Source: an uncultured Gammaproteobacteria bacterium (lineage in GTDB: Bacteria; Patescibacteriota; Microgenomatia; PFEM01; JAHIFH01). Taken from it: 64,000 nucleotides of DNA. Under the pieces are notes generated by a model. That model ran no database searches and was not told the origin of the DNA. It was given only the letters and a program-made list of their open reading frames with translations. The DNA lies in the NCBI GenBank assembly GCA_964653685.1, contig CAZZHA010000001.1:5794-69793 (forward strand), in the 5' to 3' direction. Every line of letters starts with the position of its first letter. Position 1 is the first letter of the stretch. The translations under genes and the position numbers were made by a program. Shown piece by piece: positions 18,071 through 62,126 of the stretch.

Positions 18071-18102
18071 AAAACCCAGCTCCTCTTGGGGTTGGGTTTT
18101 TT
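18071..18102 (+). terminator. Rho-independent terminator after the small zinc-ribbon gene
   Basis: AAAACCCA (18071-18078) pairs with TGGGTTTT (18093-18100), followed by more T. Confidence 0.55.
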
Positions 18103-20524: not shown

Positions 20525-20527
20525 GTT

Positions 20528-20819
20528 CCTAAAAAACCCGTAAGCCGGATTCTGTTTTAGCAGCCATCTATCTAGGCCCTCGAACTTTGGTGCTTGGGAA
20601 GACACCTAATAACGCACCTTTCGGAGGTTGCAGCGGGGAGGGTTACCTCTTTTCACCCTCTATCTCAAACCAGTTAGGTTAAAGATGAGTTGTTGTCTCT
20701 GTGGCCCTATCTAGCTCCATACGACCAGGCGCATGGAGTGACGCCTTTCGGCGCCCACCCTGTCTTCGGCTGTCCGGACTTTCCTCCCGCTTAAAGCGGG
20801 TAGCTGCCAGTTTTTTAGG
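20528..20819 (-). ncRNA. rnpB: RNase P RNA, bacterial type A, compact (about 292 nt)
   Basis: Minus strand carries GGGAGGAAAGUCCGGACA (complement of 20771-20788) and ACAGAAUCCGGCUUA (complement of 20541-20555), the two P4 strands. P1 pairs CCUAAAAAAC with GUUUUUUAGG. The region is GC-rich and has no ORF. Confidence 0.9.
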
Positions 20820-28379: not shown

Positions 28380-29768
28380 TTATTTTGCTTTAGTCGTCTC
28401 GCTGGCGGAAGTCTCGCGGATACAAGTCACCTTAATCTGGCCAGCATAGGTGACTTTTTCTTCTAATTTTTGGGTAATTTTATTAGCCAAAACTACCAGT
28501 TCGTCATCATTAACTTCTTCTGGTTTAACCATGACCCGAACATCTCGACCGGCCTGATAAGCAAACGCCTCCTCCACTCCCTTGAATTTATTAGCAATTT
28601 CTTCAATTTCCTCCATTCGCTTCACGTACTCTTCATGAGCGGCGTATCTAGCGCCTGGTCGGGAGCCGGAAATAGCGTCAGCAACCCAAATAATCCGCGA
28701 TTCAGCTGACGAAAAAGGTTTATCTTCATGATGTTCGGCAATACAAGCAACCACTTCTTTGGGAATACCGTATTTCTTGGCTAATTCAACTCCTAACTGG
28801 ACATGGGTACCTTCTTCCTCAGTGACCACTTTGCCAATATCGTGAAGGAGACAACTCAAACGAACAATATTAACATCGGCCCCAACTTCATGAGCAATCT
28901 GAAGACCAATTTTGGTTTCTTCAAGAGTATGAGCGATCATGTTTTGACCATAAGAAAATCTGAATTTGAAACGGCCTAGAAGTTTAATTAAATCAGGATG
29001 AAGTTGATAAACATTAACCGCATGACAAAGCCTTTTACCTTCCTCGAACATAATCTTCTCAACTTCTTTTTTAGTTTGACTAACAACTTCTTTAATTCTG
29101 GCTGGCTGAATTCTTTGGTCTCTAATTAATTTTTGCAAAGCTCTTTTGGCAATTTCCCGACGAATTGAATCAAAAGAAGAAATAATAATGTCATTAGCAT
29201 CACCTAATTCAATCTCCACTCCTGTAGCCTGTTCAAAAGCCCGAATGTTTCTGCCCTCACGACCAATCACCCTACCTTTCAATTCCTCACTCGGCAGTTG
29301 AACCGAAGAAACCGTGTACTCGGCCACATAATCAGTGGCTCCATGCTGCATGGCTTCAACCAATAACTCTTTGGCTTTCTCTTCAACTGTCTCTTCAACT
29401 TCTTCTTCCGCTTCTTTAACTTTGCGAGCCATACTTTCAGCTAGACGTTTCTCCGTTGCTTCCAATAAAAGATTTTTGGCTTCCTCGCGAGTTAATTCAG
29501 CAATCTTTTCTAATTTAGCAATTACTTTTTTTCTTATCTCTTCAACTTCAGTTAATTTCTTATCCAAATCTTGTTGACGCTTATCAAGCTGGTTTTCTTT
29601 TTCCTCTAAAGCCCCTTCTCTTCTTTCAATTTCTGCAATTTTAGTTGCCAGCTCTTTAGCGATTTTTTTACTGTTCACTTTTTTTGTCGATTTTACTTCT
29701 TTCCCACCTTTTTGAGTTGCTTTTTCTTCGTCTAAAGCTTTGGTTAATAAATTATCTAATAATCCCAT
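28380..29768 (-). CDS. rny: Ribonuclease Y (KH + HD domains) without an N-terminal membrane anchor
   Basis: 462 aa. KH motif GRVIGREGRNIRAFE and HD motif LLHDIGK. The N-terminus MGLLDNLLTKALDEEK is hydrophilic, and in-frame stops lie just upstream of the SD. Confidence 0.9.
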   Translation of the reverse strand: MGLLDNLLTKALDEEKATQKGGKEVKSTKKVNSKKIAKELATKIAEIERREGALEEKENQLDKRQQDLDKKLTEVEEIRKKVIAKLEKIAELTREEAKNLLLEATEKRLAESMARKVKEAEEEVEETVEEKAKELLVEAMQHGATDYVAEYTVSSVQLPSEELKGRVIGREGRNIRAFEQATGVEIELGDANDIIISSFDSIRREIAKRALQKLIRDQRIQPARIKEVVSQTKKEVEKIMFEEGKRLCHAVNVYQLHPDLIKLLGRFKFRFSYGQNMIAHTLEETKIGLQIAHEVGADVNIVRLSCLLHDIGKVVTEEEGTHVQLGVELAKKYGIPKEVVACIAEHHEDKPFSSAESRIIWVADAISGSRPGARYAAHEEYVKRMEEIEEIANKFKGVEEAFAYQAGRDVRVMVKPEEVNDDELVVLANKITQKLEEKVTYAGQIKVTCIRETSASETTKAK

Positions 29769-31699: not shown

Positions 31700-31773
31700 C
31701 GGGGTGTGGCGCAGTTGGCTAGCGCGCACGCATGGGGTGCGTGAGGTCGCCGGTTCGAGCCCGGCCACCCCGA
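31700..31773 (+). tRNA. tRNA-Pro (anticodon GGG), CCA not encoded
   Basis: Hand-folded cloverleaf. Acceptor CGGGGTG/CACCCCG; D arm GCGC-AGTTGGCTA-GCGC; anticodon arm CACGC-ATGGGGT-GCGTG; T arm GCCGG-TTCGAGC-CCGGC; discriminator A, followed by CAA. Confidence 0.9.
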
Positions 31774-35126: not shown

Positions 35127-35570
35127 TTATCTTTTCGGAGATTGTTTTTTAGCTCGGGCTGATTGGGCAAGGCCGGCTTTGCGGCGCTCTTTCATTCGCG
35201 GGTCACGAGTTAAAAGACCAGCTTTTTTTAAAGGCAGATGATACAGTTCAGAGTTTTCTTTAGCCAGAGCTCTGGCTAAGCCATGGACAACTGCTCCCAA
35301 TTGACCATTTTTACCTGATCCTCTAACCTTAACCGTCGCGTAATATTTCCCTTCAGTTTTGGTGACCTGAAACGGCTTCATGTAAACGAATTCATTAACC
35401 TCACCCGGAAACCATTCTTCAATTGGCCGATCATTAACCACCAAATCGCCTTTGCCTTTTAAGAGTCTTACCCGGGCCACAGCTTCTTTTCTTCGACCAA
35501 GAGCATAAGTATAGGCTTTTTTCCGACCCCGCTTGGTTTTTCTGACTTTAACTGTTTTTTTAGTCACCAT
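35127..35570 (-). CDS. rpsI: 30S ribosomal protein S9
   Basis: 147 aa. GRRKEAVARV.., GGGKNGQ-like GSGKNGQLGAV, C-terminal ...KKQSPKR. Confidence 0.95.
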   Translation of the reverse strand: MVTKKTVKVRKTKRGRKKAYTYALGRRKEAVARVRLLKGKGDLVVNDRPIEEWFPGEVNEFVYMKPFQVTKTEGKYYATVKVRGSGKNGQLGAVVHGLARALAKENSELYHLPLKKAGLLTRDPRMKERRKAGLAQSARAKKQSPKR

Positions 35571-45399: not shown

Positions 45400-45764
45400 A
45401 TGACCTCCGTAGCCAGAGAAGCAATCTTAGCATAACCCAAATCTTTAATTTCCCTAGCCACCGGACCTAAAATTCTGGTCCCTTTCGGATTACCATGCTT
45501 ATCAATAATCACCGCCGCGTTGTCATCAAAGCGAACAAAAGAACCATCGGTCCGACCCTGTTCTTTTTTGGTTCTAACAATGACGGCCCTAACTACCTCG
45601 GCATCTTCAACCACGCCACTAGGATCAGCCTGATCAACAATAGCCACAACAACGTCGCCAATTCTACCAAAGCGTCGCTTTGAACCACCTAAAACCAGAA
45701 TCACTTTTAATCTTTTCGCCCCAGTATTATCGGCTGGCTTTAGAATTGTTCTTAACTGAATCAT
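45396..45764 (-). CDS. rplN: 50S ribosomal protein L14
   Basis: 122 aa. [17 protein letters not shown] and [29 protein letters not shown]. Confidence 0.96.
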
Positions 45765-49002: not shown

Positions 49003-49649
49003 TATTTCAGAAAAGTTTCTTTTAATTTTTTAATACTTTCTTCCATTAAGACAACCTGCTTTTGACTCAGAACCTGGTAAGGGTTAAGCTGATTAGCCTG
49101 AACCAATTGAACCCCAGCCAGATTCCTTGAGGCCCGAATAACATTCTCTAAAACCTCTGGCAAAACCAAAAGAATCTTCACTTCCTTTTTCTTTTTTTCC
49201 TTTAAGGGCAGCTTAGTAAGAATCGTAGCCATGGTTTTAGTTTTTGGTTCCACTTTCCCCAGTCCCTTAACCGCAATGATTTCTTCTTCCTTAAATTTAC
49301 TTGTTAGAGCGGAGAATAAGGCTTGGCGCTTCATTTTCTTGCTCATTTTCAACTTATAATTTTCCTTGCCCGTTGGGCTGTGAGCCCGGCCACCACCAAC
49401 GAAAATCGGAGCATAACGATCACTATGACGGGCCCGACCTGTACCTTTTTGACGCCAAATTTTTCTTCCGGAACCTGCCACTTCGGCCCGAGTTTTGGTT
49501 TTAGCGCCGGCTTTTCTTTGATTTGAAAGATAAACTTTAACAGCCTGAGCCATTAAAAGTTTATTAATCTTCGCCTCAAAAATCTCCTTAGGCAGACTAA
49601 TTTGACCTGCTTTTCTACCAGTAATTGTATAGAGATCAACTTTAGCCAT
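49002..49649 (-). CDS. rplD: 50S ribosomal protein L4
   Basis: Real start MAKVDLYTITG at 49649, after GAGGAGG. KIWRQKGTGRARHS. Confidence 0.94.
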   Translation of the reverse strand: MAKVDLYTITGRKAGQISLPKEIFEAKINKLLMAQAVKVYLSNQRKAGAKTKTRAEVAGSGRKIWRQKGTGRARHSDRYAPIFVGGGRAHSPTGKENYKLKMSKKMKRQALFSALTSKFKEEEIIAVKGLGKVEPKTKTMATILTKLPLKEKKKKEVKILLVLPEVLENVIRASRNLAGVQLVQANQLNPYQVLSQKQVVLMEESIKKLKETFLK

Positions 49650-50505
49650 TGTCTTTTGCCTCCTCAACTGGTTCTTCTTTTGTTTTTTTCTCTTTTTCCT
49701 CCACTGATTTTTCCTCCTGACCTGATTGTGGTTTGGCTTCAGTTTCTCCAGCAGCTACCAAAGCTTCTTTGGCTTCTTCTTCTCGCCGCAAACGTTCAGT
49801 TCGCTGCTCCTCGGTTTCTTCAATCTCCTTTTTACCTACCTCCATTAAAGGCACAAAACGCTTGGTCTTGCCCGTTTTGGTAATAATCAAAAGCCCGTTT
49901 TGGGCGCCTGGCACCAATCCTTTGATTAATAATTCTTCATTTTCCTTATCAATTGCCTGAATTGTCAATCCCTTGACGGCTATTCGAGCATTACCGGCCC
50001 TCCCGGGCATTTTCTTACCTTTATGAACTCTACCAGGAGTGGTGCCTTGACCAATTGAACCTGGTGCTCTTTCTCGATCAGATTGACCATGGGTTCGCGG
50101 TCCACCTTTAAAACCCCAACGCTTCACAACACCGGTAAAACCCTTACCCTTTGACCAACCAGTCACTTTTATCTGGTCGCCTGGCTGAAAAATATCAGCG
50201 ACTTTAAGCCGCTCACCCACTTTAATTTCATCCCCAAGAGGCTTCTCTAATCTAATTTCCCGCAAAAAACGAGGAGCCTTTTCTAATTTAGCTCCTCTTA
50301 AATGTCCTTTTAATGGTTTCTTAATCTTAGTCATCTTTTTTTCTCCCCAGCCGACCTGAACTGCATGATAGCCATCTTTTTTTTCATCTCGAATCTGAAC
50401 CACATAACAAGGTCCAGCCTTAATTCTGGTTACTGGTATCCTGGTGCCATCTTGAGTAAATCTCTGATTGACTTCTTTTTTTATGCCTAAGATTGTGTTT
50501 AACAT
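49642..50505 (-). CDS. rplC: 50S ribosomal protein L3 with a long acidic C-terminal extension
   Basis: Real start MLNTILGIKKEV at 50505. FKGGPRTHGQSDRERAPGSIG. The tail is rich in E/K (..EEAKEALVAAGETEAKPQSGQEEK..). Confidence 0.94.
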   Translation of the reverse strand: MLNTILGIKKEVNQRFTQDGTRIPVTRIKAGPCYVVQIRDEKKDGYHAVQVGWGEKKMTKIKKPLKGHLRGAKLEKAPRFLREIRLEKPLGDEIKVGERLKVADIFQPGDQIKVTGWSKGKGFTGVVKRWGFKGGPRTHGQSDRERAPGSIGQGTTPGRVHKGKKMPGRAGNARIAVKGLTIQAIDKENEELLIKGLVPGAQNGLLIITKTGKTKRFVPLMEVGKKEIEETEEQRTERLRREEEAKEALVAAGETEAKPQSGQEEKSVEEKEKKTKEEPVEEAKDNG

Positions 50506-50518
50506 TTTGACCACCAAA

Positions 50519-50539
50519 AAGAGTGCCGGAGGCACTCTT
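50519..50539 (-). terminator. Terminator-like hairpin in the rplC leader (candidate attenuator)
   Basis: Minus strand reads AAGAGUGCC-UCC-GGCACUCUU, followed by UUUGGUGG. The hairpin ends 13 nt before the rplC ATG at 50505. Confidence 0.6.
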
Positions 50540-50606
50540 AGGGTTACTCCATTAACTAAATTAGTTTACTTTCAATAGGTGTTTAACCTCACCTCCATTA
50601 GCAAAT

Positions 50607-50635
50607 ATTATAGAAAAATTCAGGATAAAAAGCAA
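50607..50635 (-). promoter_or_regulatory. Promoter for rplC and the downstream ribosomal genes
   Basis: Minus strand reads TTGCTT (50635-50630), a 17-nt spacer and TATAAT (50612-50607). Confidence 0.6.
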
Positions 50636-50668: not shown

Positions 50669-50962
50669 TTAATCAATTCCCCAGAATTTCTTCTCGCCCT
50701 CTTCATCTGGACCAATGAATTTCAGTTGTAAAAAATCCTTTAAGTCACTAATAAAATGGCCAATGCCAAAAGAAAAAGATAATTGTCCTAAAAGATGCTG
50801 ATAAAAAAATAAACCAAGCAGCATTAACATCACCCCATAAATCCAATGATGAGGAGCCCAAGTGGGATTATTAAGTTTCATATTAAGATAATAATGGCTC
50901 CATCTTCCAAGTAGATATCCTATTAAAGCAGCAATGACGAAAAAGAGGATTTTCCAGATCAT
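50669..50962 (-). CDS. Small hypothetical membrane protein
   Basis: 97 aa with three hydrophobic helices. TGgTAGAAT lies 7 nt upstream of the ATG. Confidence 0.55.
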   Translation of the reverse strand: MIWKILFFVIAALIGYLLGRWSHYYLNMKLNNPTWAPHHWIYGVMLMLLGLFFYQHLLGQLSFSFGIGHFISDLKDFLQLKFIGPDEEGEKKFWGID

Positions 50963-51029
50963 TTTCTTAATTCTACCAAACCAAACGATATTGACCTTTT
51001 AATTTTTCTGCTATAATTATTTACATTAT

Positions 51030-51590
51030 ATGCTGGTTAAAAAAATTATTCTCATTATCCTTGCTTTAGGAGCAGTTGGTACCTTAAGTTTTTTTCTTCT
51101 TAATAAAAATAGTTTGCCAGAGGTTACTCAGCAGGTTGGGATGGAAAAAGAAAATCTCGATGACCAATGGTTAACCTATACCAATGATTCTTATCAATAC
51201 GAAATTAAGTATCACCGTGACTGGCACAAGCAGGAAGAAAATGAACCACCCTACCCTCCGCCACCTGCGGGAATGAACTTCAGCCGGCGTTGGCTTGAAC
51301 CACTAGAGGTTTGTGATTTTCAGATTTCATCAAGCGATATCGTTGATAATTTTGAAGGGGAAATTGAGAGTCTCTCCCAAGACACTAATAAGCAAATGTC
51401 TCAAGCAGTAATCGCTGGCCAAAAGGCAACCAAGTTCGTTAGTTCAACCGAAAACCAATTAGTTGAGAGCTATTACCTAACTTATAAAAGAAATTCATTT
51501 AATTTGGGATTTAATATTCTCCGAGGGGAACACTTTAATACCTGTCAACAGGTCTTTAACCAAATGATTGCTTCTTTTAAGCTTTTATAG
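51030..51590 (+). CDS. Hypothetical secreted/anchored protein
   Basis: 186 aa. N-terminal TM (IILIILALGAVGTLSFFLL). No recognisable domain. Confidence 0.55.
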   Translation: MLVKKIILIILALGAVGTLSFFLLNKNSLPEVTQQVGMEKENLDDQWLTYTNDSYQYEIKYHRDWHKQEENEPPYPPPPAGMNFSRRWLEPLEVCDFQISSSDIVDNFEGEIESLSQDTNKQMSQAVIAGQKATKFVSSTENQLVESYYLTYKRNSFNLGFNILRGEHFNTCQQVFNQMIASFKLL

Positions 51591-52272
51591 CTTTTATTAA
51601 TAATCTTGTTGGCATTGAAGAATATTTCTTATAGTCTTTTTTATTCTTTTTAGCCTTTTTACCCACAGGGGTGGGTTCTTCAACACTTAACAGTTCAAAA
51701 CCAAAACTCATAATCGTGTTTATATAGTCAGAAAACTTTTTCGGGTGATATTTAATTTCTGTTCCCCAAGGTGTTTTCTCTATCTTTGCTTTATTACTAA
51801 AGTATTCTGAATGATTACTAACAAACCGAAGTGGATGAATAGTAATAAAAAATAGATATCCTCCTTTTGCTAACCATCTAGAAATACTCTCCATTGTTTT
51901 CTTAAAATCCTTTTGACTTAAATAATTAAAAGTCATATTACTTACGACAAGGTCTAAGCTTTCATTCCGTAGTTTTAAATTAGACAAGTTTGCCTGTATA
52001 AACCTTATATTGGGAAAAGAATTTCGGGCGATATTTAGCATATCAGGACTTATGTCAGTTCCGATAAGATTTTTTTCCCTCACTCCCAAATCAAGAAGTA
52101 GTTTTATTGTTCTTCCAGTTCCACACCCAGCATCAAGAACTCGCATCTTACTTTCCAATATTGGTTTTAAATGCCTTTCCATTGCTGGTTTTTCTACAAA
52201 TTTCCAACTAAATGATTTCTCTGAAAACTGAATATATTTAGCAGCTTGCACACCTGAGTATTTTACTTTCAT
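51577..52272 (-). CDS. Class I SAM-dependent methyltransferase
   Basis: 231 aa. Motif I VLDAGCGTGR, motif II DLVVSNMTFNY. The 3' end overlaps the convergent gene by 14 nt. Confidence 0.85.
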   Translation of the reverse strand: MKVKYSGVQAAKYIQFSEKSFSWKFVEKPAMERHLKPILESKMRVLDAGCGTGRTIKLLLDLGVREKNLIGTDISPDMLNIARNSFPNIRFIQANLSNLKLRNESLDLVVSNMTFNYLSQKDFKKTMESISRWLAKGGYLFFITIHPLRFVSNHSEYFSNKAKIEKTPWGTEIKYHPKKFSDYINTIMSFGFELLSVEEPTPVGKKAKKNKKDYKKYSSMPTRLLIKAIKA

Positions 52273-52340
52273 GGGGAGTCAATTATATCACTAGCTATGT
52301 AAATACAAAAACCCAGTAAATCGGGCTTTTCTATCCCTGA

Positions 52341-52373
52341 CTCCCTATCGTGGACGAAGTTAGAACTGGTTTG
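52341..52373. repeat. Island repeat copy 1
   Basis: CTCCCTATCGTGGACGAAGTTAGAACTGGTTTG. Lies 4 nt beyond the stop codon (52378-52380) of the EamA-like gene and 53 nt upstream of the -10 box of the methyltransferase gene. Confidence 0.7.
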
Positions 52374-52377
52374 AGCT

Positions 52378-52800
52378 TTAAATGCTAAGAATATAAATAC
52401 TTAATATTGCTAAAACAAGCCCTGTTATTTTTATTAATGTCAGTCTTTCGCCAAAAAATAGCAGACCAATGATCGCCGAAAAAATAATTGTAGAAATTGA
52501 CAAAAGAGGTAATCCAAGGCTAATAGGAGCCTTCTTTTGATACATCAAAAAATAAAGAAGGCTGCCAAAAGCACTAAAAATTCCTGCTAAACAAGCCAGT
52601 TTTACTCCTTTTGAGGTAATGGTTATTTCTTGACCAGTTGTTTTGAAAATAAAAATTAACCCCAAAGTAATTATTGCTGAGGCGACTGAGAGAGAAATTG
52701 ACCCAACAAGAGCATGTAGATGATTGCTGCTCAATTTAAGAAAAGCGTTGTAGATGGCAAAGAAAAAACCAGCGGCTATGCCAAAAATTACCCAATTCAT
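52378..52800 (-). CDS. Half-size EamA/DMT-superfamily transporter
   Basis: 140 aa, 4-5 TM, single EamA-like domain. TGgTATAAT lies 6 nt upstream of the ATG. Confidence 0.7.
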   Translation of the reverse strand: MNWVIFGIAAGFFFAIYNAFLKLSSNHLHALVGSISLSVASAIITLGLIFIFKTTGQEITITSKGVKLACLAGIFSAFGSLLYFLMYQKKAPISLGLPLLSISTIIFSAIIGLLFFGERLTLIKITGLVLAILSIYILSI

Positions 52801-52816
52801 GTTTTCATTATACCAA

Positions 52817-52844
52817 ACAAAAAAAGCCCATTAGCTTGGGCTTT
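52817..52844 (-). terminator. Rho-independent terminator
   Basis: Minus strand reads AAAGCCCA-agctaa-TGGGCTTT followed by TTTTGTTT. Downstream of the 52935-53426 gene. Confidence 0.6.
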
Positions 52845-52934
52845 CTGAAATTAGTTCGGCCAATAAAGCCATTTACAAACTCCAAATGTAAATTGGTCCA
52901 ACCAAAAACCTTTTGCTGGGAAACCAATTTTAAA

Positions 52935-53426
52935 TCACGATCCGGCTATTTTTGTCAATTTGATAACCGTAACGACTCCATTCTTTTCATTTCCCTGAAC
53001 CCTGGCCATAGAACCAAGCTCTAATTTGCTTTTATCACAAACTTCTTCCCCACTACCCAAATCACATTTACTTGAGGCATTAAAGGCGAGATTAGCTGTG
53101 TTAGCTGGCCGACCGGGTGATTCGTAAAGCAAAACCCAATTACCAGTTTGCCTTTCGGCATTAGCATCCCAATCAGTTAAATTGCCTGTCTTATCAAAAT
53201 TCTCGACCAAAACCGGCTGGCTATCTGATTCGTCAAGGTCTTGTTCAGCCTCTTCTATTGGAGCACTTGTCTCTTCGGAACTACTACCAGTGGGTAATTG
53301 AATTCCTGGCAAATTTATTGGTTTCTTGATTATTTTTGCCCCACCATAAACGACTATGGCTCCTACCACCAAAAGAATAATCAAAATTAACAAAGCCGCT
53401 CCTTGTTCGTTTTTTGATTTTCTCAT
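52935..53426 (-). CDS. Hypothetical secreted/anchored protein
   Basis: 163 aa. N-terminal TM (AALLILIILLVVGAIVVYGG). SD AAGGGGGTGAGG. Confidence 0.6.
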   Translation of the reverse strand: MRKSKNEQGAALLILIILLVVGAIVVYGGAKIIKKPINLPGIQLPTGSSSEETSAPIEEAEQDLDESDSQPVLVENFDKTGNLTDWDANAERQTGNWVLLYESPGRPANTANLAFNASSKCDLGSGEEVCDKSKLELGSMARVQGNEKNGVVTVIKLTKIAGS

Positions 53427-53471
53427 CTTTCCTCACCCCCTTTCTTTTTCCTTTAAAAGGTTCCTAATTCT

Positions 53472-53495
53472 CTCCTGTGGATAAAGTTAGAACTT
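53472..53495. repeat. Island repeat copy 3 (shortened)
   Basis: CTCCTGTGGATAAAGTTAGAACTT. Shares CTCC..GTGGAnnAAGTTAGAACT with copy 1. Abuts the GNAT stop codon. Confidence 0.55.
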
Positions 53496-53961
53496 ACTCA
53501 CTAATTTTCTTTTCTAGACAAATATCTATCTCTAAGTACCCATTACTACGATAAAAATCCAAGGCTTCTCTATTTTCCACATAGCAATTAAGATATATTT
53601 TCTGGAAACCTTCTCGCTTTGCCCAATCTGTTATGGTGTCTAATATTTTTTTACCGATTCCTTGTTTCTTTTTTTCAGGTATTACTCCTAGATTATCAAT
53701 TTCAAAATACCTACTTTTACGATATGATACTTCTTTTTCTTCGCCATTCGCGTATCCAATCATCTGTCCATCCTCTTCAGCGATCAAAAAACACCCCTTT
53801 CTACTTCTAATTGCTTCTTTGAAATATTTCTCTCCCTGAGGGGTATAGGCAAAGTCCTCAACAGCATCTTCGTCATATTCAGAATTATTCATGAAGATTT
53901 GCTTATTCAATTTTTTTACGGCTGGTAAATCGCGGATCGTTGCTTTCCGGATAGTTATCAC
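53494..53961 (-). CDS. GNAT family N-acetyltransferase
   Basis: 155 aa. Acetyl-CoA motif VIPEKKKQGIGKKIL. GTG start, 6 nt after TGaTATAAT. Confidence 0.85.
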   Translation of the reverse strand: MITIRKATIRDLPAVKKLNKQIFMNNSEYDEDAVEDFAYTPQGEKYFKEAIRSRKGCFLIAEEDGQMIGYANGEEKEVSYRKSRYFEIDNLGVIPEKKKQGIGKKILDTITDWAKREGFQKIYLNCYVENREALDFYRSNGYLEIDICLEKKISE

Positions 53962-54027
53962 AATTGAATTATATCAAAAGTGGTTCAACAATTTTTATCT
54001 GAAGTAGAACATCTATCTTCAAACTTA

Positions 54028-54060
54028 CTCCCTATCGTGGGCGATGTTCAGACTAGTTGG
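54028..54060. repeat. Island repeat copy 2
   Basis: CTCCCTATCGTGGGCGATGTTCAGACTAGTTGG. The first 13 nt are identical to copy 1. Lies 54 nt upstream of the -10 box of the GNAT gene. Confidence 0.7.
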
Positions 54061-54252
54061 GAACAAATTTAAGCAAGAAAAATCTAATAAATGAAACCAA
54101 AGATACTTGTTCGCAGAATCACTCGGGAAGAGAGTGATTAGAGCTGGATAAATGACCGGACAAAAATTTATCATATGTTGATATAGTTATAAATAGTCTC
54201 CGCAGGAAGTCTCACTTCAGGTTTAGGAGTTTGATAGTAAGTGGTTTGTTAT

Positions 54253-55779
54253 TTATTTAAATATTTCTCTAAGAAAGCTAAGGATTTTTTGCCAAAAGGT
54301 TAGTTTTGTTTCAGACAAAGGAGTAATTATTGGTTCTGGATTTGAAGTAATTTGTGGTGTGGGACTTGGTTGTTGTTCTATTTTTTCTTTAATCAGTTCT
54401 GTTGTCTGACCCAAGACTTCATTTTCCGAGGTTGTCTTTTTAGCTACAGCCAATTTTTCAGTTTTGGCAGAAATGTAATTAGACCACCTTCCCGGAGCGC
54501 AGCCGTTGCCGGCTCTGATTGTAAAATAATAGGTAGTGCTTGGGGCAAGAGCTTTTATAGTGTAGTTGACTACTCCAATCTTTTGAGCGGAATTAAATTG
54601 GGTGCCAAAACGCCAGTCGCCTTCCTTATAACCATAGGCAATAAAATAATAGGAAACATAATCGGTAACCGGCATAAAATATAAAGTGGCGGAATTTTCA
54701 GTGGTATCAATTTGAAATAATTTTGGCGCAGTTAAAGGCGGCCAATCTCCACAACCAAGGGCAGAAGTAGAACTTGTAGAAGTAGAACCGGTATCTTCTG
54801 CTACCGTAAAAGTAGTGAAATGGGCAGCCGTAAAAGTAACTAAATGAGTCGTTCGGTTATAACTTAATCCGGACACAATGCCACCAGTATCAGTTTGTCC
54901 ATCAACTAATATTTTTGGGCTGTTTAGGGTAATACTATACATCGTTAAAGAAGCTTGGGTATCGGTTAAATCTTTAATGAGGTCAGCGTCAAGGCTGATT
55001 ACTCCCTGGGAAATGCTTAATTTGCTGTCTAATGATTGCATCCAGGTCAAAGCATCGCGATCAGTGAAATTCATCTCCGCCAAAAAAGTTATTTTGCCAA
55101 TGTTTTCTCCACCTTCACTTTTCAGGAAATATAATCCGGAGATACGGGAAAAGTCGCCTTGATCGCCTAAGTTTGTGGCTACACCTTCATTGGTCATTTG
55201 TGTAGTAATAGTACTGATTGTTGGACATTCACCAGAACCTGGGTTGCACCATCCGCGAGTAGGAGAAGCGGCCGAATTCCAGGTTTGTTCATCTAAGTTG
55301 TAATAGGCAGATTTGCCTTGTTCTATGGTAACGCCAGTGGCGTCACTCGGATCAGCACCAGGATCACAAGTTTCGCTACCGTACTTTACGGCATAAACAC
55401 TATTGCTCTCATCTCTGAAAATTACCAAACAGGCGCCATCATCAGGGATACGAGTGTCATTATCGGTCGCGAAAGTCAAAAAACCGCCGCGGGGGACGCT
55501 CCCACTTAAATCTTGTGAATAGAAATAAGTGTAGTTTGGTTCTGTACCCTGATAAATTACCAATCTCCACCCGGAAAGACTAAGAGCTGTGTCCTGATCA
55601 GGATTTAGCAGCTCAATCCATTCTTCGCCGCCAGCACTAGGCTGCGCTACAAACTCGTCAATCATTACCACAGGATCACCATTTGCCCTTACCGGAGAAA
55701 TTCTTACGACAACGGCAAAAAAAGAGAAACAAAGAAGAAGCAGAAAAACAAAAACTAGTTTTTTCATCACTAAAAACAT
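54253..55779 (-). CDS. Secreted lamin-tail-domain (LTD) protein with a C-terminal fibronectin type III domain
   Basis: LTD motif VVMIDEFVAQPSAGGEEWIELLNP..LSGWRL. Fn3-like TAPKLFQIDTTENSATLYF..STTYYFTIRA. The ORF-track start at 55827 lies in the transposase relic. ATGs at 55779/55767 precede the signal peptide KKLVFVFLLLLCFSFFAVV. Confidence 0.8.
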   Translation of the reverse strand: MFLVMKKLVFVFLLLLCFSFFAVVVRISPVRANGDPVVMIDEFVAQPSAGGEEWIELLNPDQDTALSLSGWRLVIYQGTEPNYTYFYSQDLSGSVPRGGFLTFATDNDTRIPDDGACLVIFRDESNSVYAVKYGSETCDPGADPSDATGVTIEQGKSAYYNLDEQTWNSAASPTRGWCNPGSGECPTISTITTQMTNEGVATNLGDQGDFSRISGLYFLKSEGGENIGKITFLAEMNFTDRDALTWMQSLDSKLSISQGVISLDADLIKDLTDTQASLTMYSITLNSPKILVDGQTDTGGIVSGLSYNRTTHLVTFTAAHFTTFTVAEDTGSTSTSSTSALGCGDWPPLTAPKLFQIDTTENSATLYFMPVTDYVSYYFIAYGYKEGDWRFGTQFNSAQKIGVVNYTIKALAPSTTYYFTIRAGNGCAPGRWSNYISAKTEKLAVAKKTTSENEVLGQTTELIKEKIEQQPSPTPQITSNPEPIITPLSETKLTFWQKILSFLREIFK

Positions 55780-55847
55780 TTTTACCTTTTTTGATAAAAA
55801 TGTCAACATCTTATCCATCCACCACATATTGGAATTATTAGGGTAAT

Positions 55848-56048
55848 CAGTTTACCAAAGTCATAAAGGAACCCAGAACCACTGTCTGTCTGGGTCGCTT
55901 TGATCTGAAAGGGAGTGATTTTAATAAGCTTGTCTAAGAAATCAGCCAACGTTCTTGAAAAATGACTCTTGTAGATGTAGGAGAAAGTAAATTCAGAAAT
56001 GATATCAATGTCAGTAAGAATATACCTCTTGATTCCATGTTCGAATCT
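55848..56048 (-). mobile_element. Degenerate fragment of an rve (DDE integrase-core) transposase, IS481/IS3-like
   Basis: Own translation gives RFEHGIKRYILTDIDIISEFTFSYIYKSHFSRTLADFLDKLIKITPFQIKATQTDSGSGFLYDFGKL. It fits the rve pattern hhhD..S+...a......FL......p..I..vqTDNGsEF. There is no start codon and both ends are missing. Confidence 0.6.
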
Positions 56049-56105
56049 AACATTTGAAGTTGCGAAGAATATTTAAATTTGCTTAACTTATATTAGAGTT
56101 AGAAA

Positions 56106-57272
56106 ATGATGAAAATAATTACAGATAAATTAACCGCCCTGAAGAAAATAAAGCTATCCAAACTCCATTTAATACTCATAGCTTTGGGCTTATTGGTTTT
56201 ACTAGGTACAATCTCTGCTATTTATTTACAGAAAAGGCAACAAGGTTTCTTAAGAGAGGGGTCTGGACAACCACAGGGTTGGGGACAAAGACCGGGAGGA
56301 GCTCAGGATCTCGGCGAACCGCCATCGACCTCTCTCAAACCGCGTTGGAGTGGTTCTATTCCCAAACCCCCCAAAGAAAAGATTACCTACTACAAAGGCA
56401 TTTGGGGTGCGACATGGATTTATCCGGAAGAACATTCCAATCTTAAACCTGAACCTGAAAAATACCGCGGTTGGGGAGTGAATATTATTAATATCTCCCC
56501 AGGTTTTGAAATTAACAAAAACGGCGAGGTGCGCTACCCTTTGGACTTCCCTACTTATGAAGATATGGATGCCAGGATTGGCGAAATTGCCGAAATGTTT
56601 TACAAAGAAGATATTTATTTGGCCATGACGATTCAGGTTCATTATAAAGAAGAGTTTGTCCGCGGGGCCGAATGGGGCGGAGAAACGGCTTATATACCCA
56701 AGGAAAAGACACAAATTCCTGGATATTTCAAAAATTTTGACAATATTGTTGTTGATATGGCCAAAATCGCCCAAAAATATCACTTGGAATTGTTTTCGCC
56801 GTTAGGTGAACCGGAGAATGTATTTTACGATCCTAAATTAGCTTCCGATTGGAGTCAACAGGTTCTGCCCAAGGTTAAGAAATACTACAAAGGTAAAGTT
56901 TATTACAAGGGTGATTTACACAAAGGAGAGGGGGACAATATGAACTTCAGAGGCTATGATGTTTTAGGAATTATGCCTCACCCGGCTGAGTTAGCGTATA
57001 ATTTTAAGGCTCTCCGAGAAAAAGTGGTTATCAATATGGACAAAGGTCTGGCTTGGGCCAAAAGAGATGGAGTAAATGAGGTAGTCGTAGCCGAACATGG
57101 ATATGAAGGAGGGGGCAAGATGTGGCCTGCAGAAAACTTCGATATCCTCTTGGAAGAAAGCAGTAAAAGATTAAACGGGATTTTTTTAAGCGATCCATTT
57201 CCAACAGTTCTAAAAACAAAACAAGGTGAGCAAATTATCTCTGTGATGAAAAGGTGGTTTTCCTCCAAGTAA
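56106..57272 (+). CDS. Hypothetical membrane-anchored extracytoplasmic protein, possibly a TIM-barrel glycoside-hydrolase-like fold
   Basis: 388 aa with an N-terminal TM. Weak GH5-like hints (SPLGEPENV, VVVAEHGYEGGG). No firm family assignment. Confidence 0.45.
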   Translation: MMKIITDKLTALKKIKLSKLHLILIALGLLVLLGTISAIYLQKRQQGFLREGSGQPQGWGQRPGGAQDLGEPPSTSLKPRWSGSIPKPPKEKITYYKGIWGATWIYPEEHSNLKPEPEKYRGWGVNIINISPGFEINKNGEVRYPLDFPTYEDMDARIGEIAEMFYKEDIYLAMTIQVHYKEEFVRGAEWGGETAYIPKEKTQIPGYFKNFDNIVVDMAKIAQKYHLELFSPLGEPENVFYDPKLASDWSQQVLPKVKKYYKGKVYYKGDLHKGEGDNMNFRGYDVLGIMPHPAELAYNFKALREKVVINMDKGLAWAKRDGVNEVVVAEHGYEGGGKMWPAENFDILLEESSKRLNGIFLSDPFPTVLKTKQGEQIISVMKRWFSSK

Positions 57273-57312
57273 CCAGTCTGCTCCGCGGGCAAGACTCGAA
57301 CTAACATTAAAC

Positions 57313-57621
57313 TTACATCTTGATTTCAATATCAACGCCTGCGGGCATTTCGAGGTGCATTAAGGAGTCAATTGTTTTACTAGTTGGTTCAAGAATATCA
57401 ATTAATCTTTTATGAGTAAGAATTTGGAATTGTTCTCTGGCGTCTTTGTCAGTGTGGGGACTGGTGGTAACCGTAATCAGTTTTCGGTGGGTTGGTAAAG
57501 GCACAGGACCCACTACCTTGGCACCACTAGCTAAGGCTGTTTCTAAGATTTTTTCGCAACTTTCATCGATGACTCGATGATCATACGCTTTTAAACGTAC
57601 CCTTATTCTGCCTTTTGGCAT
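57313..57621 (-). CDS. rpsJ: 30S ribosomal protein S10
   Basis: 102 aa. [16 protein letters not shown] and [36 protein letters not shown]. Confidence 0.96.
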
Positions 57622-57627
57622 TTTTTC

Positions 57628-58818
57628 TTAGGCAATAATTTTACTAATTACTCCCGCTCCGACAGTGTGGCCACCTTCGCGAATAGCAAAACGGAAGCCT
57701 TCCTCCATGGCAACCGGCTGAATAAGTTTGACTGTCATCTTGGCATTATCACCAGGCATGACCATTTCCACTCCTTTAGCGAGAGTGACTTCACCGGTTA
57801 CGTCTGTAGTTCGAACATAAAATTGAGGTTTGTAACCGCTAAAGAAAGGAGTGTGACGACCACCTTCTTCTTTGGTTAAGATATAAACTTCTGCCTCAAA
57901 TTCTTGATGAGGCTTGATGGTACCGGGCTTGGCTAAAACTTGGCCTCGCTCAACGTCTTTCTTTTCAATTCCTCGAAGGAGGATGCCGACGTTATCGCCA
58001 GCCTCACCTTCATCAAGAGTCTTGCGGAACATTTCAACACCAGTGACCGTGGTTTTTTGGGTATCGCGTAGACCGACAATTTCGATTTCATCACCAACTT
58101 TAATTTTACCTCGTTCGATTCTCCCGGTAACAACCGTCCCTCGACCTTTAATAGAGAAAACATCCTCAAGAGGCATCAAGAAAGGTTTATCTAAAGGCCG
58201 TTTAGGTGTCGGAATATTTTCATCAACCGCCTTCATCAGCTCAAGAACGGTTTTTTCTGCTTCAGCATCGCCCTCAATGGCCTTAGCGGCGGAACCTCGG
58301 ATAATCGCAATTTTGTCACCAGGGAATTTATATTTAGTTAAAAGTTCCCTGATTTCCATTTCAACCAGATCAAGCATCTCTTTGTCCTTAACCAAATCAA
58401 CTTTATTTAAGAAAACGACCATGGATGGCACATCAACTTGACGAGCTAAGAGAATGTGCTCTCGAGTTTGAGGCATTGGACCATCATCGGCGGCAACAAC
58501 AAGAATGGCACCATCCATTTGGGCAGCCCCAGTAATCATGTTTTTGATAAAGTCTTTGTGTCCGGGACAGTCAATGTGAGCATAGTGACGCTTTTCCGTC
58601 TCATACTCAATGTGGGAAATAGAAATTGTCAAACCTCGTTCTTTTTCTTCAGGAGCGTTATCAATCTGATCAAAGGGGATATATTTTGTCCCCGTATTGG
58701 CTTTCTCCAAAACCTTGGTAATGGCCGCGGTTAAAGTCGTCTTGCCATGGTCAACGTGACCAATGGTCCCAATATTAACGTGAGGTTTTTCTCTTTTAAA
58801 TTTTGTTTTTTCAGCCAT
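57628..58818 (-). CDS. tuf: Elongation factor Tu
   Basis: 396 aa. [19 protein letters not shown]. Confidence 0.98.
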
Positions 58819-61132: not shown

Positions 61133-61489
61133 CTAATAACCTCGTTCCTTCCCTGAACTCCTTGTTTTCTCAAACAACTCTTGTTGAATCTCATCATCTT
61201 CTGTTTCGAAATGATGGTCGCTTGCAAAATCTCTTACTTCCATCATTCCAAACATGCCTGAACCATCAAAAACAACAAAAGTGCCATGTTGAGGTAATCT
61301 ACAATTACCTACGACCCTATTAGTTTGGTGGTGTTCAATGCAAAGCTCGGTTAAATCACCTTCAGCTCTGATAACCAGTCTATCCTTCATCCAAGCAACC
61401 ATCTCACTCCTTCTAAGGGAAAATGAACCTTCTATTTCGTCCCAACAATCCCGACAGATTGCCTTTGCTGTGGGTTTTCTAATCGACAT
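61133..61489 (-). CDS. Hypothetical Cys/His-containing protein
   Basis: 118 aa. CRDC..C..HH..C pattern and an acidic C-terminus. No recognisable family, and no obvious SD or -10 box at the start. Confidence 0.45.
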   Translation of the reverse strand: MSIRKPTAKAICRDCWDEIEGSFSLRRSEMVAWMKDRLVIRAEGDLTELCIEHHQTNRVVGNCRLPQHGTFVVFDGSGMFGMMEVRDFASDHHFETEDDEIQQELFEKTRSSGKERGY

Positions 61490-61550: not shown

Positions 61551-62126
61551 TCAAAAACCTCTTTGTCGGTAAAGCTTAGGATCAATCACCTTTACCATAG
61601 CTTGAGTATCAAGAGTTTCATCTAAAAATTGGTTAATCTTTTTTACTTGACTCGCTGGCTTTTTCAAAACTTGATTATAGTTAATATAGATGACTTCAAT
61701 ATTGGGTTGCTTGCCCAACCATAATTTAACCTCTTTTAAATGCTTTTTGAATAAGGTAGCCATCTTTTTATCACTGGCTTTATTCACTGGTTTGCCTCTT
61801 CTTTTAAGCATTTGTCTTTGGGAAGCAAGAATCTCTTCCATCTTCCGTTGCATAAAAATTACTTTGTAATTGTAGTCTTTGGGTAAATATTTTAAGAATT
61901 CAGACACCATCTTAACGGTCTTACCTTGAACCTGTTTAAGCCAAGTTTTATCCCGCCTAATCTGTTTAACTTTTTCAAATTCATAATAACCTTTAGGGTT
62001 ATCCTCATCGGCCTTTCTCAGATTATCTGTCAAAACAGACATCCCACCGGCTTTCATCATCTTCATCATCATTGAGGTACCAGAACGAGGTAAACCAGAA
62101 ACAATCGTAACCGTTTTTTGTTTCAT
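61551..62126 (-). CDS. Sulfotransferase family protein
   Basis: 191 aa. PAPS 5'-phosphosulfate-binding-loop-like GLPRSGTSMMMKMM at the N-terminus. Size and layout match small bacterial sulfotransferases. Confidence 0.65.
   Translation of the reverse strand: MKQKTVTIVSGLPRSGTSMMMKMMKAGGMSVLTDNLRKADEDNPKGYYEFEKVKQIRRDKTWLKQVQGKTVKMVSEFLKYLPKDYNYKVIFMQRKMEEILASQRQMLKRRGKPVNKASDKKMATLFKKHLKEVKLWLGKQPNIEVIYINYNQVLKKPASQVKKINQFLDETLDTQAMVKVIDPKLYRQRGF

Follow-up and report, generated by a model that had tools for sequence, protein, structure and literature searches.

The stretch of DNA analysed here over its whole length of 64 kb, called the window throughout, belongs to a Patescibacteria/Microgenomates genome of the Candidate Phyla Radiation (CPR), and the element in question is the leader of its rplC gene, which encodes ribosomal protein L3 and whose leader is of a Woesebacteria-like lineage. 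On the minus strand rplC heads a 15.4-kb run of genes that extends to rplM-rpsI, and it is preceded, in this order, by a promoter, a leader of ~94 nucleotides (nt), a terminator-type hairpin with five U residues and a GGUGG sequence, after which comes the rplC ATG at 50505 (Table 1). As set out below, the promoter hexamers, a short box near the predicted 5′ end and the hairpin are conserved in relatives whatever gene lies upstream, and the rplC leader is probably a new candidate ribosomal protein (r-protein) leader or attenuator, with a mechanism that is predicted from the sequence.

Table 1. Features of the rplC leader and of its surroundings in the window.
Feature	Positions	Strand	Remarks
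-35 hexamer TTGCTT	50630..50635	minus	3/6 matches to TTGACA
-10 hexamer TATAAT	50607..50612	minus	6/6 matches; 17-nt spacer from -35
5′ box AUGGAGGU	50591..50598	minus	8 nt past -10; presumably at or beside the transcript start
Mini-ORF AUG GAG GUG AGG UUA AAC ACC UAU UGA (MEVRLNTY*)	50572..50598	minus	Probably not the functional unit
Hairpin P1, AGGUG / 8-nt loop / CACCU	50577..50594	minus	Overlaps 5′ box
AT-rich palindrome AACUAAUUUAGUU	50554..50566	minus	Shared only with the closest relative, L068
Weak hairpin P2, GUUA / AUGGAG / UAAC	50543..50556	minus	Second GGAG in loop
Terminator-type hairpin AAGAGUGCC-UCC-GGCACUCUU	50519..50539	minus	9 bp (5 G-C), 3-nt loop
U-tract, 5 U	50516..50520	minus	Runs on from stem; 5-8 U in relatives
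Shine-Dalgarno sequence GGUGG of rplC	50511..50515	minus	Directly after U-run
rplC (L3, 287 amino acids)	49642..50505	minus	Heads the run that ends with rpsI at 35127
Inserted island	50669..57307		6.6 kb of unrelated genes between rpsJ and the rplC promoter
rpsJ (S10)	57313..57621	minus	Start 6 nt past tuf
tuf	57628-58818		Adjoins rpsJ, 6-nt gap

The initial annotation of this region had placed a promoter, TTGCTT-17-TATAAT, upstream of rplC at 50635-50607, and a hairpin with a U-tract at 50539-50516, 13 nt before the ATG, and both are where it had put them. The promoter is of the sigma-70 type, its 17-nt spacer lying within the 16-18 nt expected between the -35 and -10 hexamers, and is conserved: a TTGC[A/T][A/T] -35 hexamer with a fixed 17-nt spacer is retained in nearly all homologous leaders, and the hexamers are kept while the spacer drifts in sequence. 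A consensus scan of the window listed neither the rplC promoter nor the hairpin terminator, the former because its -35 hexamer matches the consensus at only three of six positions and the latter because the T-count rule was applied after the maximal stem; the same scan lists the orthologous promoter and terminator in the relatives L032 (TTGCAA-17-TATAAT, 10/12 matches) and L162 (promoter with 11/12).

The hairpin is stable and non-random, since the 21-nt hairpin folds with -12.6 kcal/mol and the hairpin with its flanks with -16.2 kcal/mol (z = -4.18, none of 200 shuffles being as stable). Its 9-bp stem, 3-nt loop and U5 fit the form of an intrinsic terminator, for which a GC-rich stem of 5-14 bp, a loop of 3-8 nt and a U-tract directly after are expected, and it does not lie at the 3′ end of a transcription unit, being placed between the conserved promoter and the Shine-Dalgarno (SD) sequence and ATG of rplC. 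Judged from the sequence, this placement between promoter and start codon is that of an attenuator, and the geometry bears out the earlier proposal that rplC transcripts must cross the hairpin, whether they start at the leader promoter or further upstream. Compact, clean sites of hairpin plus U-tract are scarce, there being ~4 in 64 kb on both strands together (the others at 18072-18099, 52844-52823 and 20552-20534). One of these, AAAGCCCAAGCUAAUGGGCUUU with U7 at 52823-52844 (-), follows the gene at 52935-53426 and ends ~23 nt before the ATG (52800) of a same-strand EamA-like gene, an arrangement like that of rplC.

Relatives were gathered by L3-based scans of species-representative genomes and metagenome contigs, together with twelve look-ups of L3 homologues; their loci carry L numbers. 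Group A includes the window, group B is defined by a shortened L3, and group C consists of Woesebacteria, including L004, L076, L077, L079 and L168, with L154, L156, L159 and L160 as intermediates. The group B L3 proteins (L017, L032, L092, L097, L099 and L102) have ~198-219 amino acids (aa) and are without roughly 70 residues, equivalent to ~30-100 of the window protein; those of group A have a long charged C-terminal tail.

Comparison of leaders in relatives, which had been suggested as a check on the hairpin, found it kept in 26 distinct leaders (alignments A4 and A5), all from Woesebacteria-like Microgenomates and in every case immediately before rplC. The 4-fold sites of rplC are 35% identical between groups A and B, that is, saturated, and against this background identity is 98% in the -10 hexamer, 100% in the 5′ box, 90% in the 21-nt hairpin and 68% in the -35 hexamer, as opposed to 46% in the promoter spacer, 46% in the 8 nt between -10 and box, 28% in the 10 nt after the box and 34% in the 10 nt before the hairpin. 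Since these identities are so high relative to the saturated rplC sites, purifying selection acts on the promoter hexamers, the box and the hairpin but not on the intervening segments.

Within the hairpin, standard pairs occupy 94.4% of cells over the 26 sequences of alignment A5, compared with 32-65% when the 3′ partner is slid. Four of the nine pairs change on both sides (10 cells), with none of 500 shuffles matching either the cell count or the covariation score, and one-sided changes are overwhelmingly transitions to G-U (15 cells). As pairs are kept or compensated, and as the G-U changes would break a palindrome in DNA, selection acts on the hairpin as RNA. Past the stem, five consecutive columns are T in 26/26 sequences. 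With its 26 members, the selection acting on it and the covariation of its hairpin, the element is a conserved structured RNA in the 5′ untranslated region of an r-protein operon, which is one of the marks of an r-protein leader (r-leader). Within the 3′ arm of group B, CGCUCUUU resembles boxA, a likeness judged to be a by-product of the stem and U-tract.

A covariance model built from 19 leaders finds the motif once per locus, directly before rplC, and nowhere else in the window. A repeat of the REP (repetitive extragenic palindromic) or MITE (miniature inverted-repeat transposable element) type is ruled out by this single copy in the window and one per locus. Neither the window nor the loci hold copies elsewhere or before other operons, save for a weak generic match before rpsL in L012 (1109-1197, E = 0.037), where a 5′ hairpin and then GGCGGUUUUUGCCGCC with U6 lie ~45 nt before the rpsL ATG and after rpoC; a similar hairpin with a U-tract lies 25 nt before rpsL in L006. 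Against Rfam 15 the leader has no family match at the gathering threshold and none that is meaningful at E <= 10.

Between promoter and hairpin, the initial annotation had listed AGGUG-N8-CACCU (50594-50577) and an AT-rich palindrome. Both are present, and the first is part of P1: AUGGAGGUGAGGUUAAACACCU begins 8 nt past the -10 hexamer, and within it AGGUG (50594-50590) can pair with CACCU (50581-50577). Further on, the middle of the leader is rich in A and U and varies among relatives. The palindrome is not conserved beyond the closest relative and was dropped as a conserved part of the leader. The best conserved segment is the 5′ box, which is identical across 15 distinct sequences of groups A and B, has degenerate forms in more distant members (GUGGAGG, GUGGAAG, CUGGAGG and AUGGGGG) and contains a perfect SD-like GGAGGUGA that has no suitably spaced start codon after it. 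The pattern TATAAT-N8-RTGGA is confined, within the loci, to the rplC leader site. Three readings of the box are open: it may bind a protein, stabilise the 5′ end in the SD-like manner of Bacillus, or sense the 30S subunit; a CsrA-like reading, prompted by the recurrent GGA core, was considered and set aside.

All nine group A sequences in alignment A2 have P1, its loop varying freely and one U-A pair being replaced by U-G, and the other subgroups have a different 5′ hairpin in the same place (AACUC/GAGUU in group B, GUGG/CCAC in group C and UGGAG/CUCCA in L156). P2, of the form (A)GUU(A/G)/(U/C)AAC(U), makes a 4-5 bp stem in 10/11 group A sequences with one compensatory change (L072, GUUG/CAAC). 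Conservation supports P1 and P2 weakly. Instead of closing P2, its 3′ arm can join the start of the SD sequence, whose first three bases are complementary to ACC at 50544-50542, and one pair of this outer helix covaries (U-A 4, U-G 3, C-G 2). SD sequences of the GGAGG type serve several genes of the window genome, and GGUGGU, as before rplC, also precedes the gene starting at 45764.

The rplC start itself needs care in annotation. The ATG at 50505 corresponds by alignment to residue 1 of L3 homologues, and the longest rplC open reading frame (ORF), 49642-50535 (-), opens at a GTG within the hairpin (MPPALFLVVK...), an extension that matches 297-aa database proteins. Because homologues align from the ATG at 50505, the 297-aa form is an artefact of annotation in which the terminator and U-tract are read as coding sequence, and gene callers often push the rplC start into the terminator hairpin in this way.

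Upstream, rpoC, rpsG, two unknown ORFs, fusA, tuf and rpsJ occupy 63989-57313, and the island that follows contains genes for a 97-aa membrane protein, a 186-aa protein, a methyltransferase, an EamA-like protein, a GNAT protein, an LTD/fn3 protein and a GH113-like protein, as well as a 109-aa ORF. That rplC should need its own expression signals because rpsJ is detached, as the initial annotation had argued, is contradicted by relatives with an adjacent rpsJ, which carry the same promoter and leader. In at least eight distinct relatives rpsJ lies 105-170 nt upstream of rplC with the promoter and leader inside the spacer; those with the two genes adjacent are L002/L071, L069, L148, L153, L156, L076, L017, L032/L110, L092 and L097. 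The promoter-leader unit therefore predates the island. Nor is there support for a leader relocated from before rpsJ, as had also been suggested: rpsJ here follows tuf after 6 nt, and nothing resembles the E. coli S10 leader.

In other relatives different genes stand between rpsJ and the promoter, among them one for a 140-aa protein (L001), NUDIX genes (L073, 2760-3829; L150, 891-1355), an EamA gene (L164) and a Y1 transposase gene of the IS200/IS605 type (L160, 619-1296). An identical L3 protein is found both with an adjacent rpsJ (L153) and with a 252-aa gene inserted (L152). The leader unit thus travels with rplC whatever lies upstream, be it rpsJ, a NUDIX gene, an IS200-type transposase gene, a methyltransferase gene or others. 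The rpsJ|rplC junction is a pre-existing transcription boundary and an insertion hot spot, and we attribute the repeated insertion there of unrelated genes and an insertion sequence (IS) element to the boundary that the leader sets. The island genes themselves were excluded as conserved partners, since in the fetched loci the methyltransferase alone is shared, and only with L068.

Several further observations concern these junctions. In the window, the 109-aa ORF (56981-57307, -) follows rpsJ, and the str operon is interrupted too, by two ORFs without a family match between rpsG and fusA (118 and 191 aa; 61136-61489 and 61554-62126, minus). L079 has a remnant copy of the rpsJ 3′ end (…GVSIEIKM*) downstream of the intact rpsJ (1955-2065 and 2190-2270 region) and a long perfect palindrome, CUGGAGAGAGCGAAGCGAACGAUAG…CUAUCGCUUUCGCUCCAG, inserted between terminator and rplC; L079 and L004 (235-300 in the latter) have a recurring motif, CAAAUNNCGCUCCUUGAG…CGAAAGGUAAG, in common, which suggests a small mobile or repeat element. 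Unusually long rpsJ-rplC spacers occur in Anaerolineae-like L010, L014, L015, L020 and L084 (221-227 nt) and in Actinomycetota metagenome-assembled genomes L023-L045 (174-296 nt). The scanned loci with such spacers gave no Rfam family match, and they may hold other undescribed leaders. In the distant Microgenomates L006 (5840-5870) and L012 (5908-5925), the rpsJ-rplC spacer opens with a small hairpin that includes GGAGG (UUGCUAGAGGAGGCAA; AUGCCUAAGGAGGCAU), so that the hairpin-embedded SD-like box may be older than the family conserved in sequence. Elsewhere the window has an RNase P RNA of class A (116 bits, 20525-20818, -) and one tRNA (31700-31773, +).

Our reading of the leader is that of a conserved 5′ control region of the rplC-led r-protein operon that acts as a regulated attenuator, a reading we favour tentatively, its chances falling somewhat short of even. 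The hairpin would act as the transcription attenuator and the outer helix would partly occlude the SD sequence, with basal read-through feeding rplC and roughly 30 downstream genes. When r-proteins are in excess, a trans-acting factor would tip the balance to termination, most likely by binding the conserved box/P1 and/or the hairpin, and by precedent this factor may be an operon-encoded rRNA-binding protein such as L4. Such control would follow the same logic as the S10 leader of E. coli and the L20 and L10 leaders of B. subtilis. The hairpin would also face transcripts from tuf-rpsJ or from inserted genes and so may insulate the operon from upstream transcription. L4 is proposed as the effector by precedent alone, that of the E. 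coli S10 leader (PMC3616713) and of a candidate in Archaeoglobi (PMC7247131).

Support for regulation comes from distant Microgenomates, in which hairpins unrelated in sequence occur in the same layout, a ~95-nt leader ending in a hairpin and U-tract with rplC within a few bases. We asked whether the leader upstream of the hairpin captures the 5′ arm of the terminator better than do its own dinucleotide shuffles. In three distant lineages a 7-8 nt upstream complement to this arm is present (L162, p = 0.003; L012, p = 0.0075; L019, p = 0.0125; 2000 shuffles each), with a promoter upstream that was listed by the scan in L162 and read by eye in L019, and none obvious in L012. Such complements make sense only with conditional termination, and they therefore support regulated attenuation as a general design of rplC leaders in this group of bacteria. 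Results within group C vary (L079, p = 0.04; L077, 0.08; L004, 0.20; none in L076, L154 or L168). The attenuator proposed by the initial annotation is thus strengthened by the conserved leader and by the terminator/antiterminator pairs of distant relatives, and weakened by the result for the clade of the window itself, where the antiterminator test falls short of significance (group A, p = 0.06-0.44; group B, 0.03-0.12).

Besides this last result, several others weigh against regulated attenuation. The full-length leader does not stand out in stability (z = -1.14), and a perfect 9-bp stem capped by a triloop would offer a specific protein a rather plain target. In transcripts cut off ahead of the 3′ arm, most members have a minimum-energy fold that pairs GGAGGU of the box with GCCUCC at the hairpin apex, and 92% of cells are pairable compared with 36-66% when slid; this long-range helix was nevertheless rejected because it shows no covariation (0 double changes, and shuffles do as well). 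Divergent members uncouple the two segments, with a GGAAG or GGAUAG box and a CCCCC apex in L154, L076 and L168, a box without CCUCC in L077 and CCUCC without a box in group D. A comparison with E. coli rRNA gave no convincing mimicry: the best match, AUGGAGGUGAGGU against 23S 1713-1725 (12/13), has p = 0.04 before correction for 12 tests, is not significant after it and is not kept in group B. Moreover, we infer the start site, termination and read-through of the rplC leader from its sequence, and to our knowledge termination by CPR RNA polymerase has not been studied.

Of the other explanations, the one that survives best, unlikely in our judgement though deserving serious weight, is a constitutive, leaky terminator combined with mRNA-stabilising ends, in which there would be no specific feedback and the hairpin would only damp or insulate transcription coming from tuf-rpsJ or the inserted genes. 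The 5′ hairpin and SD-like box would then shield the long mRNA from 5′-end-dependent decay, like the STAB-SD and polypurine stabilisers of Bacillus, and after processing in the AU-rich middle the terminator-type hairpin could become a protective 5′ end. This would account for the SD-like GGAGGUGA, which lies near the predicted 5′ end and has no ORF within usable reach, and for a 5′ hairpin that is conserved in position and not homologous between subgroups, and it agrees with the RNase Y homologue, a decay enzyme of the Firmicutes type, encoded in the window (28383-29768, -), with the lack of a significant antiterminator in the clade of the window and with the other clean hairpin and U-tract 23 nt before a same-strand gene (52844-52823). 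However, a generic terminator or stabiliser stem should drift by compensation, and this one is instead 90% identical where neutral sites are saturated. The significant antiterminators of L162, L012 and L019 fit only conditional termination, and a promoter before an efficient terminator would be wasteful unless termination were regulated.

Much less probable is an attenuator that senses ribosomes, in which GGAGGUG of the box would pair with CACCU (P1), with CCUCC (apex) or with the 16S 3′ end (CACCUCC) of a free 30S subunit, so that formation of the terminator would depend on how many free subunits there are. Box and apex are both invariant in groups A and B, they pair in the truncated-transcript folds of most members, single changes in L159 (A to G) and in L160, L092 and L004 (C to U) keep the pairing through G-U, and GGAGG-type SD sequences are in use in the window genome. 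The same two segments, on the other hand, lack covariation and are uncoupled in L154, L076, L168, L077 and group D, and the switch logic is incomplete, as P1 forms first in group A and the terminator would form in either state. Were this explanation true, feedback would be exerted by the ribosome itself and not by a single r-protein, with free 30S setting termination before ~30 ribosomal and translation genes.

We give still less credence to attenuation by a leader peptide, in which the position of a ribosome on a mini-ORF of 6-12 codons, read from the AUG or GUG of the box and possibly leaderless, would steer the downstream structures. ORFs of this length do open at the box in most members, with an in-frame M-E-V-(R/K), and the AUG lies 8 nt past the -10 hexamer in groups A and B. 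Yet short ORFs are expected in AT-rich sequence, most substitutions in group A are non-synonymous, and they coincide with the loop of P1, L079 and L004 keep the nucleotides but differ in frame, CUG stands at the start in L156, the spacing from the -10 hexamer ranges from 7 to 12 nt and the stop codon falls ~50 nt upstream of the terminator. The mini-ORF and a leaderless peptide were consequently rejected, there being no coding signature and neither frame nor start codon being conserved.

An independent small RNA gene, in which promoter, ~85-nt RNA and terminator would be self-contained and rplC would be expressed only by incidental read-through, is just as improbable as a leader peptide. The layout from promoter to terminator is complete, and the hairpin is 95-150 nt from rplC in L004 and L079; against this, the extra distance in those two loci is due to inserted palindromic or repeat-like sequence, just 10-20 nt, SD sequence included, separate U-tract and ATG in nearly all members, and the window and loci hold no other copy and no Rfam family match. 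Least probable of all is that the hairpin simply terminates the upstream gene, as the initial annotation had allowed for the island gene, or that it is a DNA palindrome to which a repressor binds: the upstream gene has no other terminator ahead of the hairpin, and the hairpin is in DNA a 9-3-9 inverted repeat, but the upstream gene varies by genome whilst the hairpin keeps its place after a conserved promoter and its distance from rplC, and 15 G-U cells break the DNA palindrome yet keep the RNA stem.

Autoregulatory leaders of r-protein operons are well described in Gammaproteobacteria and Firmicutes. A literature search for a comparable leader of an r-protein operon in Patescibacteria or the CPR found none. 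The rplC leader is under strong selection before the largest r-protein operon of these genomes and sets a transcription boundary between two genes, rpsJ and rplC, that normally lie side by side, and an RNA of ~95 nt offers a small, concrete handle on the balance of ribosome synthesis in ultra-small bacteria with reduced genomes.

Among known elements, the STAB-SD and polypurine 5′ mRNA stabilisers of Bacillus, as represented among the references in PMC3997798, share with the rplC leader an SD-like purine box near the mRNA 5′ end without an ORF and a decay machinery of the RNase Y type; the rplC leader differs in that part of its box is tied up in a hairpin and that a terminator to which the box is coupled lies downstream, and a stabilising function is for it a prediction. 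The S10 leader of E. coli and other Gammaproteobacteria, through which L4 controls both transcription, by attenuation, and translation (PMC3616713), is like the rplC leader in serving an operon with rplC and rplD and in having a terminator hairpin and U-run just before the ribosome-binding site of the first gene. Unlike it, the S10 leader stands before rpsJ, is ~170 nt long with five helices (HA-HE) and is restricted to Gammaproteobacteria; the element described here is not an E. coli-type L4 S10 leader, lying as it does before rplC and having no likeness in sequence or structure detected by the Rfam scans. An L4 r-leader candidate in Archaeoglobi lies, like the rplC leader, directly upstream of rplC, there in rplC-rplD-rplW-rplB with the S10 gene in another unit, and is archaeal and rated uncertain by its authors (Eckert & Weinberg 2020, PMC7247131). 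Finally, the L20 (infC operon) and L10(L12)4 (rplJL) leaders of B. subtilis mediate attenuation by r-proteins with a terminator in the 5′ leader (PMC1865079, PMC4538822); they differ from the rplC leader in belonging to other operons and different phyla, in being longer and in having defined rRNA mimics, whilst their terminator/antiterminator architecture resembles that of L162, L012 and L019.

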